The notes under the pieces were generated by a model. It was not told the origin of the DNA, ran no database searches, and saw only the letters and a program-made list of their open reading frames with translations. The position numbers and the translations under genes were made by a program. From Amoebophrya sp. A120 (Eukaryota; Protista; Dinoflagellata): a DNA stretch of 64,000 nt. Location of the stretch: NCBI GenBank assembly GCA_905178155.1, contig CAJINV010000015.1, positions 1,035,907 through 1,099,906 of the forward strand, read 5' to 3'. Position 1 is the stretch's first letter; each line of letters begins with the position of its first letter. This document shows, one piece after another, positions 25,501-55,054 of this stretch.

Positions 25501-28500
25501 CCATGATTTGGAAGGAAAAGATCATCGCCATGTCGGCGTTATTGGATCGACCGGTAATGTCCCCAATGTACCAAAATCCGTCCTTCCAGAGGGACATCGG
25601 GGAGTACCTGATAATTTTTTTTTTCCCGATGGAGAACTTGCTTGAGAAAAAGGATCGTCCTAATGATCACAGGAAAAAAAGGCATCTACAGATTTTCATT
25701 TTCTGGATTTGCATCACGAGTTATCTCTAAATTTATTTTGCAAGATCATACATCAAGACAAGAACTTCTTCTACAGCTTCTATTCCAAAATTCTATACCA
25801 TGCGGGCATCGGGTCTTCAACCTTCCGCACATCCAAGTCCGGCTTTTCCGCCTCCCGGCACGGGACCGTCAACGCAATCACCAGGATGAAAAACGTCACC
25901 GCGTTTGCGCCCCAAAACGCGGCCAGATAGATCAGCGAGTCCCGCTGCGCAATCGCGGAGTTCGGGGTGGTCGTCCCCAGTTTGTTCCGGGCCCCTTGGA
26001 AGGACAATGTCAATGGCAACGTCAGTGCAAACGCGAAATCCAGGGTAGCGAATTGCGCGAAGGAGCCGAACGCGAGCTTGGTCTGCATGTAAATTTTCCC
26101 GCAGAAGATCCAGGTCAGGCCGTACACCGTGAAGAGGTAAAATGACGCAATGTAGGTGTCGAGACACGCGCGACCCTCCTTCAAGATCGTCACGGTTTTC
26201 GAAATGTCGTCCTGGTTCGCGACGAACGGTGCCACGACGTTGCTCGTCGAGCCGTCATCGTCTTCGTTCTGCGCGGAGGACTGTCCGCCGTGCACCAACG
26301 CGACCCCCACCTGCGCCTGCTTCAAAGCCCCGGTGTCGTTGCCGCCGTCGCCGCACATGGCGATCACGTAACGGGAAGACCGGTCCTGGAAGAACCGGAT
26401 AACCTTCCGTTTCCCATCCGGCTTGATCCGACCGTACACTTGGATGTATGGTTGCAACTTGTGCCACAAGGTCGCGTACCCCGGTTCCGTCGTCATTTTG
26501 TTAAACGCGTCCGCGGAGATCGCACAAGAGACAAAATCGACACCCCGATGCGTTCCGTGGTTGTTATGCATTGCAAAAGTATGGTACTAGTACAAATCGC
26601 ATGACAAATTTTGCCAAGAGCAAAAATGGGACTTGTCATGCTGAAAAAGGTAGACACAGATATCTGTTATGCATGAACGCAATTAGTACGAGTACGATGC
26701 TTTTGCAAAGGATAGTTGTTCGCTTTCAGCAAGTGGTGGAGTTGGTCCAAATCGCGGTTGTTTTTGATTTTCGGCTGCACTTTCCCGTCCGGGCCCTGGA
26801 TGTCGTCCAGCTCTTCCCAAACGGGTAAGTTTTCTTCCGGATTCACGGAAATGCAGAAAGGACAGTGCTCGACCAAACCGACCTGCTTCGAGATCGCCAC
26901 GCCGGTGTAGACACTGTCCCCCGTGATCATCACTGTGTGCACGTTTGCGGCCTTCAGCTCCTTGATCACGAGAAACGATTCCGGCCGCAATTCGTTCCGG
27001 AACAGCGGCATGCCGAGGTACTCGAACATGGACTGGGTCAACACATCGTCGAGCGAAACGCTATCCAATTGCGACCAGTCGAGGGCTATGCACTGCAAAA
27101 GTATCGCACTCGTAGTAATTGCAGTCATGCATTACAAACCCAACTTTCTACCCAAAGTAGCATGACAAATTGCATTTTTGTACTTGAGAGAATTTGTGAT
27201 GCAATTTATACTAGTACGATAACTTTGCAATGCATAAGGTCCATCTGGGCCTGGCAAAGTCCCAAAACGTAAAACCCCTTCGAGGAATACGTCTGCGACA
27301 AATCCGTCAGTCGCTTTTCAATCGCCTGCTGCTTTTTCTTGCTGTTCGGCGACTGCGTCATCGCCTCCCCGGAGCAGAGCTTCGTCACTGCCTCCATGGA
27401 CCCCTTCGCAAACACCGTGACCTTTTTCTTATCCGGGTTCTGCACGTCATGCGTGCAGGTCAAAGTGACCTGCAACTGCCGACTTTGGTCGAACTTCCAC
27501 TTGCGGAGGATCAGCGCCTGCTGGTGCGCGGCATCGGGGCCAACCACCATCAACGCAGATCTCGTGTCCTGCTCCCCGCGGGGCCCGGTCATCGGGATGC
27601 TGTAGCGGGTCAGGTTCCAGCCGACGGAGGACAAAGCCTCCTTTTCCAACGGATTCCCGACAATCGACAGATCCGGGCCGACGGACAAAGAGTGACAGCA
27701 GGCGAGCGCGAACAAAGCCGCGTCGTTCCCGGTTTTGGTCAGTTGCTTGTTGAATCCCACCTGGTCTCCCTGTTCGAACATGACTTCCGCAAACGCCTCC
27801 TTGATGTGTATGGGGTTCTCAAGCGTTACACTCTCAGGTGTTTCATAAATTTGTGATGCAAGAATGGAAAAAGTGAAAGGGGGTAGGTTGCACCTGTAGC
27901 ATTACAAATTTCGAACAGATTTAGGTGCTGTTTAGTCCGTCGCAAATTTGTCATGCCAAGCAGCTTGATCGTGTGGATGATGATGGTGTTTTTGCATGAC
28001 AAATCCATGTAACAGTTGAGAATGTAACGTTTGAGAACTCCATAATGTGCGGCGCAACGTTCGAACCCTCAACGATCGACCCGCGCTTTCGCATCTGGGT
28101 GACCACCTGCGCCAGTTCCTCCTTCGGCACCGCCGACGCGGAATGACCACTGCTGGTTGTTTTTTCGCTCTGCTGGGGACTCGTCGGGGAAGACAAGGTC
28201 GGACCGGTTGGACTCGCAACGGCGACAATTCCAGTGACCCGATCCGCGTAGGCCGCCTCCGCATCCATCGGAGCCCGCAGAATGCCGGACACCTGGGGAA
28301 TCCGGGCCTCCGAAATGCCCTCGCCCTCGGGACCGTAATATCCCGCCGCCTCCCCCTCGGAAAACACCCCTCCCGCAACTTCGCCCTCTGCAGCAGCTCC
28401 ACGTTGCGTATTCTTGTTTCCGCTTGCCTTCTTGCTGGTGGACCGTTTTTTCGGGGTTTTTGGCCCACCGCCTGCGATGTGCGTGCCAATGGTTTTCCGC

Positions 28501-31500
28501 GCGTCGTTATGAACTGCAAAAGTATCGCACTCGTATAAATGCATGACAAATTCCCTCAGCATGAAAAATAAAATTTGTAATGCGGATTTACCTTGAGAAA
28601 GAAATTTGCAATGCATGATTGCCATACGAGTACGATACTTTTGCACAGGATAGTCGTCGTCGGAGGGGTCCGTCGTGACTCCCCGATCGGAATTGTTTTC
28701 CGCGAGTGGGTATGCATTGCAAATATGTCTGGCTCTGGAAAGTTGTCATGCCAATGTCCGAATCATACGCAAACTGTATTGCGGAGCCACGCATGACAAG
28801 TTGTTTCCGAGCGACTATATCTAGCGTTAACCGCATGACGAATTGCCTTTTTGCATCATGACAAACAAGTGGCACTGTACTAGCGCAACGAACATGACAG
28901 ACTTGTCTGTGTGGTCGACCAAGCATGACAAACTTGCATTCTTCCAGACCCAGACATATTTGCATTTGATAGTGGGATGTTCTGCGGGCGGGAAAACTCG
29001 TCAATTTTCGGCATCATCAACACCGACCCTTTGACCGCCCGGGTGCCCTGCTTTTTCAAAGCGAAGTCCCCGGCTAACGACCCCCGCGCCGGGCCTTTCC
29101 GGTCAATGGTAATTCCGAAGAAGTCCATACCCTCCTTTGTTAATGTACCCGTCTTGTCGAAGCAGAAGAGGTTCACCTTCCCCGCCTGCGCGATTTTTTG
29201 CGGTTCCATGCAGAGGATACCGCCGTTGTCGGATTTTTCCAGACGTCGCGCGGACATGTCGGACGCGCGGGCCATCATGGTCGGAATCAACGGGTTGACC
29301 AATTGCGCGAAAGAGGTAAAAGCGGTGACTAGAACACCAATAATGATCTCGAAGTGCTCGTCGTCTTTAAAGGGGTTCGTGCAGATCAAGAGCAGAATCA
29401 GCACCATCGGCTGCAGGCAGGAGAGGTAGAACCAGACGGTGCGGAGTTCGAAGTCAAACTCGAAGAACAACGCCAGGGGGTAGAACATGGTCCGGATCAA
29501 ATCTCCCTTCAGCGTTCCGGTCCCGATCGCCGTCACCACTGCGTAGACCGCGTGCTTCGAAAATTCGTTCGCCGGGCCAGAATTCCGCGTTACCACATCC
29601 CCGGTCACCCCGCGCACCGGGGACAGATCCGGCGACTGCGGGACCGATTGGCCGCCATCACCCGGTTTCGAACTTGTCAACACCGCGATCACCTCGGTAC
29701 CGTTGAATAACATGTGGGTTTTGTCCTTCACTGTGTCCAACGGTCTCTTCGGCCCCTTGTCTTCCGCCGGTTCCTTTTCCATCGGGGTGGACTCCCCGGT
29801 TAAGGTGGACTCGTCCATAAGAACTGACCCCCGCACCAGCATCGCCTCACACGGCAACACCATGCCGTCCGTGATTTCGATGATATCGCCCGGGAGCAAC
29901 TCTTCGGAATTCACCTCGTAAAATTGCGCTTTCGAGTTGAACTCAAATCCATTCCGCCAGCACCTCACCCGGGTGAGGGATTTGCTCATCGCCAGAATCC
30001 GGTTCCAGCCTCGGTAATCGTAGAACGCGTTGAGAACGCCGGAAGTGATGAAGATCACCTCGTAAATAATCGTGACGTACCACGCGTCTAAGAAGATGAA
30101 TAGAAACGCGGCGAGCACTTGGAAAACGTACATGAAACTCCCGGTGAATTCCTGGTAGAGGCACATGAAAAACGTCTTGTCCTCGTGCGGTTCGATCACG
30201 TTTTTTCCGAAGTACCCCTGCAAGTTCTCAATCCGGTCGTAGGTGACCTTCCCGAGCCCGAGCTTCACCTGCGTGCCCGCCGTGTCCTGCTGGGAGGATA
30301 AATGGTCGTTTTTGAAGAACTGTCCCTTCAACTGGGAGGTTGACAAGTGCTCCAGCCGCTCCTTGCGCGGGACGAATTTACCCTGGGCGGTGTCGTAGAC
30401 GTACTTCAGGCATTTGAAATGGAAAATCTTCACTTCCACATCACCCCCGTGCGCCGCGTTCCCGTAGCTCATCCGGTTGCCCGAAATCGACTGTCGTTGG
30501 TGTTTATGCATTGCAGATATGTCTGGGTCTGGAAGGGTGCAAGGTTTGTCATGCTTGTCTGGCATGAGTAAAGAGTTTGTGATGCGTGTTCAAGAAGAGA
30601 CCCTTTTGCTTGTCATCATGCAAAAAAGCAGCTTGTCATGCGAAAACTGCAATACTGAGCAGCGCAGATACTTCTCATGCTTGGCTGTGCATTACAGAGG
30701 ATTCACTGTTCCCAACCCAGCATTACAAGTTTCCAGACCCAGAGGACATATTTGCTTTGCATAGTGTCGCTGCACCGAGTAATCGTCTTCCAACCGGACA
30801 AAGGCTCCGGTCTCGCCGGGGCCGGCGGCGGAGGGCCCGGAAATTGCCTCGTCGTCCACCGCCATATCCATATCATAGATCGTTTGCAACTCCCGGTCCG
30901 TGTCGGCTTTGGTCAGTTCCGTGGAGATCCACACGTACTGGATCGGCTGCAAGTTCCTGGACGTCATCGCCTTCTGGATGTTTCTTCGCCCCTGCGGTTG
31001 CTCGGTTTGCCCCGCCTGGCCCGTGAAATACGCCGACTCGTCCAGCTCCCAGACGTCCTATGGATTGCAAAAATGTCTGGGTCTGGAAGATTCGAACTTG
31101 TCATGCTGCTTTCGAACTGTAAGAAAGTTTGTATTGCATGACCAGCAAGAAGAGCGCAGTTTTTGCTACACGGCCAGGGCATTTCTCATGCGGAAGGTGC
31201 ATCAGGAAGCCCTCTAAAAGTCTGCGATGCTAGGTCAAGCATTACAGGCCTCATGGGTCATGAGAAATATGCATGACAAATCTTGCATTCTTCCAGACCC
31301 AGACATATTTGCATTTGATACGTCCTCCGAAAACCCGATAATGTTGGCGTCGACCAACTCGGCCACTTCCGCCAGGGTGAGAGCGTTGTACAGGTCCGCG
31401 AAGTAGAAGAAACCCATCAAAATGGTGAGCAAAATCCAGGTGTAAATGAAGACGAACCCGAACTGGAGTTTCGCATTCACCGCGTCTGGTTTCTGGTTGC

Positions 31501-51400: not shown

Positions 51401-54400
51401 GCAAAACCTCCAAGCTAGTGACTGTGACAAACTTTTGTCTGTCCATATCTCGGGCCGCACAACCGCACAGTATCCGATGAGGTCCTGGTTGAGAAACAGC
51501 CGATTTTTCGTATGGAAGCGTCAGGATCGAAATCGACAAAGTCGAAATAATCTGTCATGCAGAAAATGCGACACAAAAAGTGACTCTATTGCAGAGAACA
51601 ACGCAAAGGAGGCAGATTGTAGTCCTGCTAAAAGTCAAGAATTGGGCTGGTGGCTAGCATGACAGAGGGGAGCTCTTTTGCCCTAAACCGCATGACATTG
51701 GTGGTCTACGGGCAGGACGTCCCGGTGGCACGACGGCCGATAAGCTTACAAATTCATTCATTCATTCACGACCCTCGCGAGTCAACGCACTTCCGATGGT
51801 GCATGCAGAAACACAAATGACAGATTCGCTTCCAGGACGAGGGAAATGCGCCATGCGCCGACTAAAAACTGTAGGTCTAACTGGCATCGATTTTGTGCAT
51901 CGCAAGTTTCTCGATTTTGTCGATTTCGATCGTGACACTCCCATACTTCGCCGTGTTGAAGTAGAGGAGATGTTCGTAGTCTTGGTACTTGTAGTACTTC
52001 AAAAAATTGTCGAAGTTCAGCTTGTTCAGCGTTTTCTATGAACTGCAAAAGCATCGCACTACGTATGAATTGCATGACAAATTTCCTCAGCATGAGAAAG
52101 AAAATTTGTAATGCGGATTTAACCTGAGAAAGAAATTTGTAATGCATGAATGCGATTAGTACGTGTGCGATACTTTTGCACAGGATATTTTCCGCGGGTC
52201 CACGACTTGACCGGTGTCCTTGTTCGGTGCGGTTTGCTTGTTTAGGTCGAACATTTGGTACTGGAGCTGCTTGTTCTTCTTCACCTCTTCCTTATCCCTG
52301 TCGGCCTGAAAATGCCAGCCCCGTTTCTGGTCCCACAAGGGTATCAAATGTAAAAGTGTCTGGGTCTGGAAGAATTCATGTTTGTCATGCTTGTCTGGCA
52401 TGACTCCTAAATCTGTCATGCACGTTACCCAAGAGCTCCGCTTTTCTGTGATGCAGAAGCGCAGTTTGTCATGCAGAATAGGCAACACCTAGGAGCTCAG
52501 AAACTTGTCATGCTGAGCCAGCATTTGTAGCCTCATCATGAGACGCCACCCAGCATCACAAGTTTCCAGACCCAGACACTTTTACATTTGATAAAGGGCT
52601 GACCGTGTCGATTCGTCCAGTAGTCCTTCATTCGGTTCTTGAACTTCCTCGCGCGGAGAAGCCGCGTGGTGCATGGGATTCTCAACTGTTACATTCTCAA
52701 CTACTGCTACATGAATTTGTGATGCAAGAATAGGAAAAGTAAAAAGAAGGAAGCCTGCTGCACCTCCCGCATTACAAATTTGGCACAGAGAAGTTTCATG
52801 CTTTTTAGTCCTTCAAAATAAATTTGTCATGCATACCCGACTGCGCCACATCGAAAACCTTTGCACCGTCGCCGCAAGCAGCTACGGCCGCAGGAGATCT
52901 AGGGTCAGAACCGCGAAAAACATCGCGAGTATTTCTTCATCCCCGGGCACTTATGTTATCTTTACCGTACTTCTCGCTAACACTGTATGAGCTGCTGCAG
53001 ACACACTGTGACAGGGAAAAACACAGGCGCCACAATACTAGAACCCACTTTCTAAATAGTATACGGAAAACTGGCAGGCACCTGTCGCACAAAAGAAATA
53101 GCAACAGGCGCGGGTACAGAGTCCGAGAAAGTTTTGGCTAGCTTACGAGGAGATTGCTGATTGAAAACCAACAATGCTCGTAGAAGGTGTCACAACTGGC
53201 GTCGACAGTTGTGAGAAGAGCGCACCTGATTGGCAAGACAGCGAAAACGGATTTACAGGCCGCGAAGCGTTCTCATGTGTGAAAACCTGCCAAACCGTCC
53301 GTAGCTCACCTTCTTCAAGCGTTCGTGGCCGCGAAGTCGTGGGCGTAGCATGATGAAAGGTAGACGGCTGGGCTTTCTCATCGAAGGCAGATTTCCGTCT
53401 GCGAGCATCTTCTTCAACAGCGGCCAGAATTCAGCTCGCGGAGAGGGTCGCCGTCCTCTCTCCGGGTTTCCGCTGTATGTCCTCTCGTGCCACCAACTAT
53501 CTCCGCCCCGGAATGGGGCTAGCCTAGCTCGCATCTATTGTGCGCCCTTAGCTCGCGATTGCGAGGCTAGGGAACAAGTCTCTATTGGACTTGTTGCTAT
53601 TGTGGCTAGCCCTCCCCCTCTGCTCGTCGGGAGAGAAGATTCGCACCGCTTCGGTTCCACTTGTCACGCACGTGCTAAATACCGCTTGGAACTGCCATCC
53701 GTCTGCCCTGGCTCTGCGCACCGAGAAGCCCCGGCGCCATCTGCTCCGTGCTCTCTCCCCTGGCTCTGGCTCGGCGCAAATGCTTTGCGCGGAGGAGTTG
53801 GCAGCAACGCATCTTTATTGCGTGCCCCTACACATCTTTATTGCGTGCTTACGGGAGCGAGCCATCTGGATTGCGGCTCACTGCTGCAAACTCCTAGCGC
53901 GCCGCCGCATTTGCAACCTACCTCCCTCCAGCGGGGGCCGCCTTCCTCACAGGTCCGCCCGTGCCGACCTGATTTATCGCTGACACCCCGGGTAGCCCAC
54001 CATCGCCGCGCCGTCGGCTGGTTAGTCCGGTACCATGGCGGTCGCTGCTGGGACGATCTCCGGCGCCGCCGTGTCTTGCTGACGATGTACAACTTGGGCG
54101 AATTCCCGTGGAAGAGTGCCCGCAGCCCCGCACAAAATCCAGTCGAGCCACCGTGCGCAGCGACACGGACACCAGCCCGCACATAATCCGCAGGACATTT
54201 TTCCAAGAGGAGCAGGAGCACACAGACGTAAGGGTCGCAGCTCTACTGCAGATCAGGAGAAAAGAATGCGAATGCTGAATAGCGGAAGAGAGAAAATAAG
54301 CAAAAACGAAAAATGTCGAGGAAACCTATTGACTACGTCGGGCCTCTAAACTACTGCAATCTGTAAAGGCTAATGGTATGCATTTACTCACGCAGAGGGT

Positions 54401-55054
54401 CGCTGTCGGAAAAATTAACTGTGCTCAGCGGATCCCCCCCACCACCGGGGCAGGGGTTGGCATATTAAGGATCTTGAGCCAAAATGGCTACGGAGTGGCT
54501 TTCTCGTGTGGATGCTCATGCTGATGTCGATCTCGATGTGGATTCTGCATTGCAAAACTTATGCAACAGTATGAGAATGTAACGTTTGAGAACTCCATAT
54601 GGTGGCTCTGCCGATCAGTAGGTCGGGGTGGATTTCAAAGCCGAAGTCATTCTTGCTGTTCTCTTTGTCCGCGAGGTACTCGGACGTGAACTCTGGGTCG
54701 ATGGGTTTCTGCGCAGGAAAGAGCTGCTTCTGGACTTGCCGCAGCTGCTGTTGCGCAGACCGACCTTTGGTTGTCAGGTCCAGCACCGAATATGCATTGC
54801 AAATGTATCGTCCTCGTAGTAATCCTAATGCTAATCCTAATCGCAGTCATGCAAAGTATACAAATCTCGTTTTCGTTCCCAAGGTATCCATTAAAGCAGC
54901 ATGGCAAATTCCATTTCTCATGCTGGGGAAATTTGCCATGCGACTTCCACTAGTACGATAACGAGACTTTTGCAATGCATACCGAGTCCGGTATGTCGAT
55001 GTCCCGCTCGGCCGCTTTTGCGCGGGTAGTGGTGGAAGCGGACGAGGACGGCAT
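48441..55054 (-). CDS. ~415-aa protein with putative U1/matrin-type C2H2 zinc fingers; 13 exons separated only by introners
   Basis: Removing 12 elements gives one open frame: MPSSSASTTT...GRATTRLLRARKFKNRMKDYW...FKCRLCRNAKHKPTEWSCEHNKESKHK...VHCLICDQKECH...TNKHKKQLQW...FFKVFSILP*. Confidence 0.8.
48549..48827. mobile_element. Introner family F
   Basis: TSD agtcg/aatcg; IR gtaaaaacgYccccaccccagag. Confidence 0.88.
48881..49037. mobile_element. Introner family B
   Basis: TSD agttg. Confidence 0.9.
49201..49472. mobile_element. Introner family A
   Basis: TSD gacaa. Confidence 0.92.
49525..49756. mobile_element. Introner family E (opposite orientation to 37704/38627)
   Basis: TSD gcatc. Confidence 0.9.
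49836..50770. mobile_element. Introner family B carrying ~0.78 kb repeat-rich cargo
   Basis: TSD ttatg; excision restores VSH/KTGK. Confidence 0.88.
49975..50520. repeat. Degenerate AGAGG(T/G) minisatellite in both orientations
   Basis: ~10-13-bp period units (caaaagaggt, gcgagaggg) and reverse-complement blocks (ccaccctctcgcg x4 at ~50464-50514). Confidence 0.8.
50915..51167. mobile_element. Introner family A
   Basis: TSD ggcac; it splits the CxxC motif. Confidence 0.92.
51227..51447. mobile_element. Introner (IR aaaagttYgtcac..tcact)
   Basis: TSD tcccg/tctcg. Confidence 0.82.
51511..51945. mobile_element. Introner (IR gatcgaaatcgacaaa.tcga), 435 bp
   Basis: TSD tttcg/cttcg; TAT/ATA ends. 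Confidence 0.87.
52037..52187. mobile_element. Introner family B
   Basis: TSD ttttc; close copy of 28508-28652. Confidence 0.92.
52342..52593. mobile_element. Introner family A
   Basis: TSD aaggg. Confidence 0.92.
52672..54599. mobile_element. Introner family D carrying a 1.66-kb spliced-leader-headed insert
   Basis: TSD tggtg; 52672-52832 and 54495-54599 align with the two halves of the intact copy at 27809-28044; excision restores GRAT/TRLL. Confidence 0.9.
54473..54494 (-). other. Perfect 22-nt dinoflagellate spliced leader (DinoSL), genomic copy
   Basis: The reverse complement reads TCCGTAGCCATTTTGGCTCAAG, matching the DCCGTAGCCATTTTGGCTCAAG consensus. It is followed by AT, not by a GT donor. 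Confidence 0.95.
54791..54981. mobile_element. Introner, family B-like
   Basis: TSD ccgaa/ccgag; excision restores IPDS/VLDL. Confidence 0.85.

Follow-up and report, generated by a model that had tools for sequence, protein, structure and literature searches.

The stretch of DNA analysed here (the window, 64,000 nt in all), from the parasitic dinoflagellate Amoebophrya sp. A120, carries, inside an introner (a self-spreading intron), a non-coding insert that begins exactly at the first nucleotide of a complete dinoflagellate spliced leader (SL; DinoSL for the dinoflagellate sequence), a cap sequence that mRNAs normally receive by splicing. Judging from the sequence, we put it at about an even call that this insert is a copy of a small family of SL-capped, non-autonomous retro-mobile RNA elements; the family, which lacks a long reading frame and is found in two introner families, likely spreads via its capped RNA and a borrowed reverse transcriptase (RT). 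The features that define the insert and its host introner are listed below, with the terminal inverted repeats (TIRs) of the introner and with reference to a second copy on a metagenome contig, L001.

52836-54494, minus strand: SL-headed non-coding insert of ~1,659 nt in the sense orientation of the host gene, with an approximate 3' end and a homologue in L001
54473-54494, minus strand: complete 22-nt DinoSL, followed by AT and not GT; junction present in a contig of sequencing run X1
54399-54494, minus strand: conserved 96-nt head, the SL plus two predicted stem-loops, 85% identical to L001 2328-2423
52673-54599, minus strand: host introner of family D, swollen to 1,927 nt, recognised by its TIRs and its match to the D copy; intron of a minus-strand host gene
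52673-52835: introner D arm including the 27-nt TIR at 52673-52699, 74% identical to 27810-27956
54495-54599: introner D arm including the 27-nt TIR at 54572-54598, 80-83% identical to 27972-28044
27809-28044 (alignment from 27806): uninterrupted family D introner, the empty-site reference

The exact DinoSL 21-mer at 54473-54493 on the minus strand was the sole match in the window at three or fewer mismatches, and none of 100 shuffles contained a match; the T at 54494 completes the 22-mer, and AT comes next. SL nucleotide 1 is the 5' junction of the insert, and introner D sequence picks up again at 54495. The first-pass annotation of this DNA had described this arrangement, a perfect DinoSL at the head of a ~1.66-kb insert in a family D introner, and it was borne out by the exact 21-mer with its completing T, by the match of both arms to the D copy and by an X1 contig in which the junction is unchanged. 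The far end had been placed at 52833; length-matching to the D copy shifts it to ~52836, with 1 nt of ambiguity. The RNA-like origin proposed at that stage is likewise supported: the junction falls on SL nucleotide 1, the SL has no GT behind it and the window contains no tandem SL array. Run X1 has contig sizes and depth that look genomic and is possibly the data behind the window assembly. Its 3,578-nt contig spans 54464-56000 with 0 differences and extends 31 letters past the SL junction into the insert; a second X1 contig matches 52673-52849 without change, yet with just 14-17 letters inside the insert it was not counted as bridging. No single X1 contig crosses the whole insert. The depth of the insert interior in X1 was near single-copy, as was that of the junction and arm of the chimera.

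The second copy, L001, was the sole match in a scan of metagenome contigs for the end of the SL together with the ten bases that follow it. Its insert runs from 2328 to ~3860 and again begins at SL nucleotide 1, followed by AT. The introner around it belongs to another family (TIRs 87% like window 51510-51946), and it lies in front of an unrelated open frame on the same strand; both copies are sense to their host gene. Nothing else in the L001 flanks is common to the window, and since the flanks are unrelated the two insertions are not orthologous. That independent copies start exactly at the SL while the DNA upstream of them is unrelated is most simply accounted for by copying of a capped RNA, and recurrence in another introner family and another host gene argues for a mobile family rather than a one-off event. 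The first-pass annotation had offered either a trans-spliced, unspliced RNA or an SL-headed retroelement; L001 makes the latter the better reading, whereas a one-off retrocopy has become too narrow. Capture of the insert as introner cargo had also been suggested. Foreign sequence between intact TIRs is indeed present, as in Pack-type cargo introners; the copies sit in different introner families, however, and there is no sign of introner and insert having moved together.

Conservation between the copies is confined to blocks. The head aligns with z = 21, and in L001 a loop is replaced, its stem is kept and one G-U pair is changed to G-C; the window head folded alone was no better than shuffles. 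Beyond the head, similarity extends through a pyrimidine tract with CTGCAG (z = 6.3, in part compositional), and the copies further share a 145-nt block at 82% identity and ~20 nt at the 3' end. In 8 of the 10 segments compared the alignment was no better than shuffles (z -1.0 to 1.7). The 8-mer before the 3' junction is identical at seven of eight positions, a score reached by 1 of 338 other introner-motif sites, which lends modest support to both 3' ends, that of L001 having been set by eye. Neither element-specific pattern scans of viral and prokaryote sequences nor a viral SL scan returned a further copy or relative, and the foreign origin considered earlier thus found no relative in the viral and prokaryote pattern scans.

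Downstream of the head, both copies contain predicted structured RNA modules, those of the window being:

53775-53914 (core 53793-53895), minus strand: structured module of type A, predicted to fold as a four-way junction with a long closing stem, fold z -4.4 for the core and -5.0 for the long form
53515-53613, minus strand: structured module of type B, same predicted four-way junction, fold z -6.9

Each copy has two such modules of ~100 nt, 275-282 nt apart (53895-53793 and 53613-53515 in the window, 2813-2905 and 3087-3189 in L001). All four, folded separately, gave a junction of 1-2 unpaired bases joining three hairpins to a closing stem, at z values of -4.4 and -6.9 in the window and -3.5 and -2.8 in L001, and the sense strand was more stable than the antisense strand in three of the four. 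The same fold was returned by 3 of 1,491 random window stretches, and by none at -35 kcal/mol or lower. Pairwise identities among the modules were 56-62%, with one pair at 82% (the first in the window and the second in L001); the type A module is 82% identical to L001 3069-3214. Pairing was kept in all four modules at 19 of the 22 anchored positions examined, and double-sided changes occurred at 6 of 15 anchored pairs, in the closing stem and in hairpins a and b. Rfam gave no match for the modules. A covariance model, rough in that its MAFFT alignment is one column out of register in hairpin a, found in the window and L001 nothing beyond the four modules it was trained on (next best E 0.6) and detected no module in the 100 viral loci scanned (of 119).

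The copies appear to be non-coding. Their longest sense ATG open reading frames (ORFs) encode 93 aa in the window insert and 119 aa in L001, neither being long, and six-frame matches between the copies were confined to the conserved RNA blocks, mostly with stops. A 293-aa antisense frame of the insert had no Pfam match, and the insert contains no RT or endonuclease ORF. As to known RNAs, no 5S or U6 was found in 52.5-55 kb, no tRNA in the window and no second SL in the 64 kb, and Rfam gave no gathering-level match in either copy (best E 0.92 and 5.7); a telomerase template motif, a hammerhead core (CTGANGA, sense strand) and an Rfam ribozyme were looked for and none was found. Likenesses to U1, U2, a U12-type site and the signal recognition particle RNA, noted by eye, received no support from Rfam. 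The SL exon contains an Sm-like site. No RNA polymerase III B box was present in either head at one or fewer mismatches, and an A-like box lies at +14 with one mismatch. The insert has no TIRs of its own; its junction in the window reads C|T and its end GG, and both copies start with TC. A near-perfect 25-nt palindrome at window 53190-53214 lies in a region folding at z ~-3, with no counterpart seen in L001.

At its 3' end the insert overlaps a repeat:

52820-52970: high-depth repeat overlapping the insert 3' end, seen in summed contig depth, which falls steeply inwards

Summed contig depth in X1, which by the contig tool's own warning is not copy number, was 13,081 at 52884, 3,884 at 52916, 385 at 52967 and ~49 at 53040, the last 130-170 nt of the insert reaching up to ~290 times the interior and the adjoining D arm near twofold. 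Since 52820-52970 falls in this repeat, the 3' boundary of the insert is less secure than the 5' boundary. The repeat may be a tail common to truncated copies, or a separate repeat with the true 3' end of the insert further in; it has no other copy in the window, and its majority variant shares 10 nt with the D interior at 27957-27966. The first 7 nt of the SL recur at 52880-52886; this site was tried as the junction and rejected, as the repeat carries on to either side of it. Elsewhere in the insert, X1 contigs break twice, stopping at 54459 and resuming from 54464, and stopping at 54260 and resuming from 54245. In 31-mer graphs, such ends indirectly suggest other loci sharing 54430-54493 and 54231-54274, and the residual depth fits one to three extra loci for the former and one for the latter. 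Runs X11 and X12 gave 92 and 6 reads, respectively, all partial and on introner motifs, and were uninformative.

The swollen introner is flanked by two host exons:

54600-54784, minus strand: host exon upstream of the swollen introner, a piece of an X3 contig with an open frame
52600-52672, minus strand: host exon downstream of the swollen introner, placed by a 73-nt gap in the X3 contig

Among the runs listed as containing the sequence, none was registered as RNA; X3 is taken as RNA by a guess of the contig tool. One of its contigs omits the swollen introner plus three neighbouring introners, and the host frame is open after splicing with the putative 73-nt exon included; the swollen intron is thus still removed, from a host gene that is expressed. 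No X3 contig covered 53161-54519; these contigs show presence only.

Within the insert, three introns had been proposed in the first-pass annotation, all on the minus strand:

54246-54391, minus strand: candidate intron 1, with a GT donor, a pyrimidine tract and CAG; plausible
53226-53309, minus strand: candidate intron 2, GT..AG present, no counterpart seen in L001; unsupported
52995-53146, minus strand: candidate intron 3, GT..AG present, no L001 counterpart; unsupported

All three GT..AG pairs exist as described, and L001 gives partial support to intron 1. Its donor GT lies at +104 in the window and +105 in L001, a coincidence with a chance of about one in six and with differing donor hexamers, and its acceptor block is seemingly shared within the genome (X1). 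From these signals intron 1 is plausible. Introns 2 and 3 found no such support, and an X3 contig from another locus (91% identical) crosses the acceptor of intron 3 unspliced. GTRAGY occurs five times in the insert against 1.8 expected (P = 0.036), two of the five lying inside a structured module, and removal of all three candidates opened no ORF above 88 aa.

These observations can be joined in a mechanism. Transcription of the element would come either from host-gene read-through or from basal promoter activity of the T-rich SL. The AG with which the genomic SL ends would then serve as a trans-splicing acceptor, by which a perfect capped SL would be restored at the very same position. Such renewal would explain the exact 5' ends, the perfect SL and the lack of a shared upstream promoter. 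In the published model, as far as the Fig. 4 legend of PMC5585692 describes it, SL-capped RNA that is not yet cis-spliced can be retroposed, and the same source, in part, describes the AG of an SL as a possible renewed acceptor for a new SL. The unspliced RNA, recognised via its four-way junctions and 3' tail, would then be reverse-transcribed by an autonomous retroelement, and removal by host splicing would let copies in introners persist. Taken further, to a promoter-less RNA parasite that hides in introners, renews its own 5' end and cap by trans-splicing and is recognised via a new four-way-junction motif, we regard the proposal as doubtful; in its boldest form, the head would also be the strain's single SL gene.

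Several results weigh against a retro-mobile RNA family. No partner RT was identified. As the first-pass annotation had stated, poly(A) and a clear target-site duplication (TSD) are lacking: there is no A-run of six or more in the window insert or in L001 and no TSD longer than 1 nt at the window insert, nor a convincing one overall, the direct repeat at L001 being the core of an abundant introner motif. No long terminal repeat (LTR) or other long terminal direct repeat was found in the insert. Only two full copies are at hand (n = 2), and their 3' regions are unalignable beyond ~20 nt. For the modules, the four anchored positions in hairpin c possibly reflect a register shift, the helices were drawn from each sequence's own fold so that pairing is partly built in, and a two-sequence shuffle control was not significant (123/500). 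Nearness of the insertions to the introner motif is weak as a sign of targeting, as 23% of introner positions lie that close. Finally, one complete SL is reported for the strain in the accessible part of PMC7789003, and the retro-mobile reading consequently needs an unreported GT-type SL donor gene.

That single reported SL also keeps alive an unlikely alternative, compatible with a mobile family, in which the head is a functional SL donor RNA with a non-canonical AT junction, carried on a mobile cassette without a fixed upstream promoter. It would agree with the strain data in excerpts of PMC7789003 (one complete 22-nt DinoSL-like sequence, >60% non-canonical introns, no U1), with a head of ~100 nt and three predicted stems, like the three helices described for Amoebophrya SL RNA, and with a T5 run at +81. 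The Dinozoa SL RNAs described in the available portion of PMC9399869, however, keep a GU donor, the T-run of L001 lies elsewhere (+113), and conservation continues past the T-run. What lies upstream is unrelated introner DNA, this alternative by itself leaves the two modules at 500-900 nt downstream unexplained, and the published single SL may be another locus, as far as the text of PMC7789003 at hand goes. Alternatively, the insert could move as DNA, as an element of rolling-circle or tyrosine-recombinase type that holds the SL as DNA at its transcription start and uses the cruciforms as DNA signals. The missing TSD and poly(A) and the 5' TC of both copies would fit such an element, and DNA-encoded SLs appear to exist in giant-virus genomes (132 distinct SL contexts in IMG/VR loci), but we consider it improbable: there is no 3' CTRR, the window target is C|T and not A|T, neither TIR nor terminal direct repeat is present, G-U pairs favour the sense strand in three of four modules, the SL stands at the very end with no space for a carried promoter, and the viral loci scanned yielded no module.

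Lower still we place the alternative closest to the first-pass annotation, in which one ordinary trans-spliced long non-coding RNA (lncRNA) of the cell, taken before cis-splicing, gave rise to separate dead-end retrocopies, with the conserved parts reflecting the function of the parent gene. Retroposition at any processing step belongs to the model in the parts of PMC5585692 seen, intron 1 is plausible in both copies, and the head and acceptor blocks seem to recur at other X1 loci. The same RNA would nevertheless have to be captured full-length at least twice, in a genus in which mRNA reintegration is called rare (PMC6482013, in part), the extra X1 locus suggested by contig ends includes the SL itself, and the type A module comes first in the window and second in L001, an order that fits a rearranging repeat better than a single-copy gene. 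A chimeric assembly, finally, would be in keeping with the lack of a contig spanning the insert and with a 3' junction in a repeat, but is very improbable given that the SL junction is unchanged in a separately built contig (X1, perhaps the source of the window), that the interior is near single-copy and that L001 has the same architecture.

The DNA surrounding the retro-mobile candidate is rich in TIR introners by self-alignment, with at least 31 copies among the self-alignment matches (window 2735-52593; 10% of the window covered). Their 8-nt core motif is ~13 times denser within introners than outside them, and several introner TIRs extend into exon sequence on both sides. The introners have TAT-type ends, as described for strain A120 in the part of PMC7789003 available. 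An exon at 28880-30589 encodes part of a cation-transporting P-type ATPase related to ATP13A, a 473-aa stretch of which is 100% identical to an Amoebophrya sp. A120 protein and 50% identical to an A25 protein.

The exact DinoSL 21-mer was also present at 119 IMG/VR loci (L002-L120), mostly contigs from metagenome-assembled genomes (MAGs) of giant viruses. Among their 132 distinct contexts, 126 have an A before the SL and three have GT after it, and the upstream 40 nt average 87% AT; from sequence, this has the look of an SL that viral DNA carries where transcription begins. No description of a DNA-encoded SL in giant viruses was found in searches of the open-access literature; in the sections of PMC9651163 available, DinoSL is mentioned for an RNA virus and near endogenous viral genes only. 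A 5.3-kb contig starting exactly at the SL (L068 1-2021) encodes an RNA-dependent RNA polymerase (PF00680, E 3.7e-7) and is RNA-virus-like, two giant-virus MAG contigs carry tandem SL copies at ~50-nt spacing (L025 2001-2121, L066 2001-2070), and in two small contigs (L048 360-380, L085 300-321) a GC-rich, hairpin-like stretch with a G-run takes the place of AT-rich DNA before the SL, the L048 ORF having no Pfam match.

If correct, the retro-mobile reading would establish a mobile-element family that is headed by a spliced leader, sits within introners and carries an RNA motif not in Rfam; searches of the open-access literature found no such family described. Strain A120 trans-splices its SL (on at least 37.8% of transcripts according to part of PMC7789003) without detectable U1 and with one reported complete SL, which sharpens the question of the donor. 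Should the reported SL be the one described here, it has no GT donor, and the donor gene would still be missing or its donor site non-canonical. The boldest reading, if true, would mean that the published SL gene is a mobile element, or that non-GT donors serve trans-splicing in a cell lacking U1.

SL-bearing retrocopies of dinoflagellates were reportedly described by Slamovits and Keeling in 2008. As characterised in the portion of PMC5585692 available, they resemble the insert in having a complete DinoSL at the 5' end without a following GT, and capture before cis-splicing is allowed. The insert differs in having no ORF, in recurring as a family with conserved RNA modules and in lying inside introners. 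Short interspersed elements (SINEs) and other non-autonomous non-LTR elements share with it a small-RNA-like head, a non-coding body and dispersed copies at unrelated sites; in contrast, the head is here a spliced leader, the length is 1.5-1.7 kb, and there is no B box, poly(A), simple-repeat tail or TSD. As the 3' end is the high-depth repeat, a tail shared with a high-copy repeat, as in SINEs, is possible. NeSL and Utopia elements (PMC4640811, in part) are likewise tied to SL sequence or to repeats as safe harbours, and some families leave no TSD. Compared with NeSL/CRE-type elements, the insert carries the SL within the moving unit, has introner DNA upstream in both copies and lacks an RT or endonuclease ORF. 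Tx1 elements insert into DNA transposons.

The SL RNA genes of Dinozoa, as far as PMC3101222 and PMC9399869 were available, share the 22-nt exon with an Sm-like site and a short structured downstream region, whereas in the insert AT replaces GT, the T-run lies at a different place in each copy, the window holds no array, and 1.5 kb of further sequence is linked downstream. Set against Helitrons, it has the 5' TC and no TSD, but in the window neither a 3' CTRR nor an A|T target; the L001 target could be A|T, but without CTRR. LTR and Penelope-like elements differ from the insert, which has no terminal direct repeats and no hammerhead core. The introners of Amoebophrya (PMC7789003, in part) correspond to the host element, with its TIRs, its TAT-type ends and its removal by splicing; nested SL-headed inserts are not mentioned in the accessible text of that paper, and a literature search on nesting in Amoebophrya introners returned no paper. 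The insert is not a member of any family tested, and in its workings it most resembles an SL-capped non-autonomous retroelement. In a related Amoebophrya, 53 orphan full-length SLs on 50 scaffolds are reported in the available part of PMC6482013, and these could be elements of the kind described here, or true SL genes.

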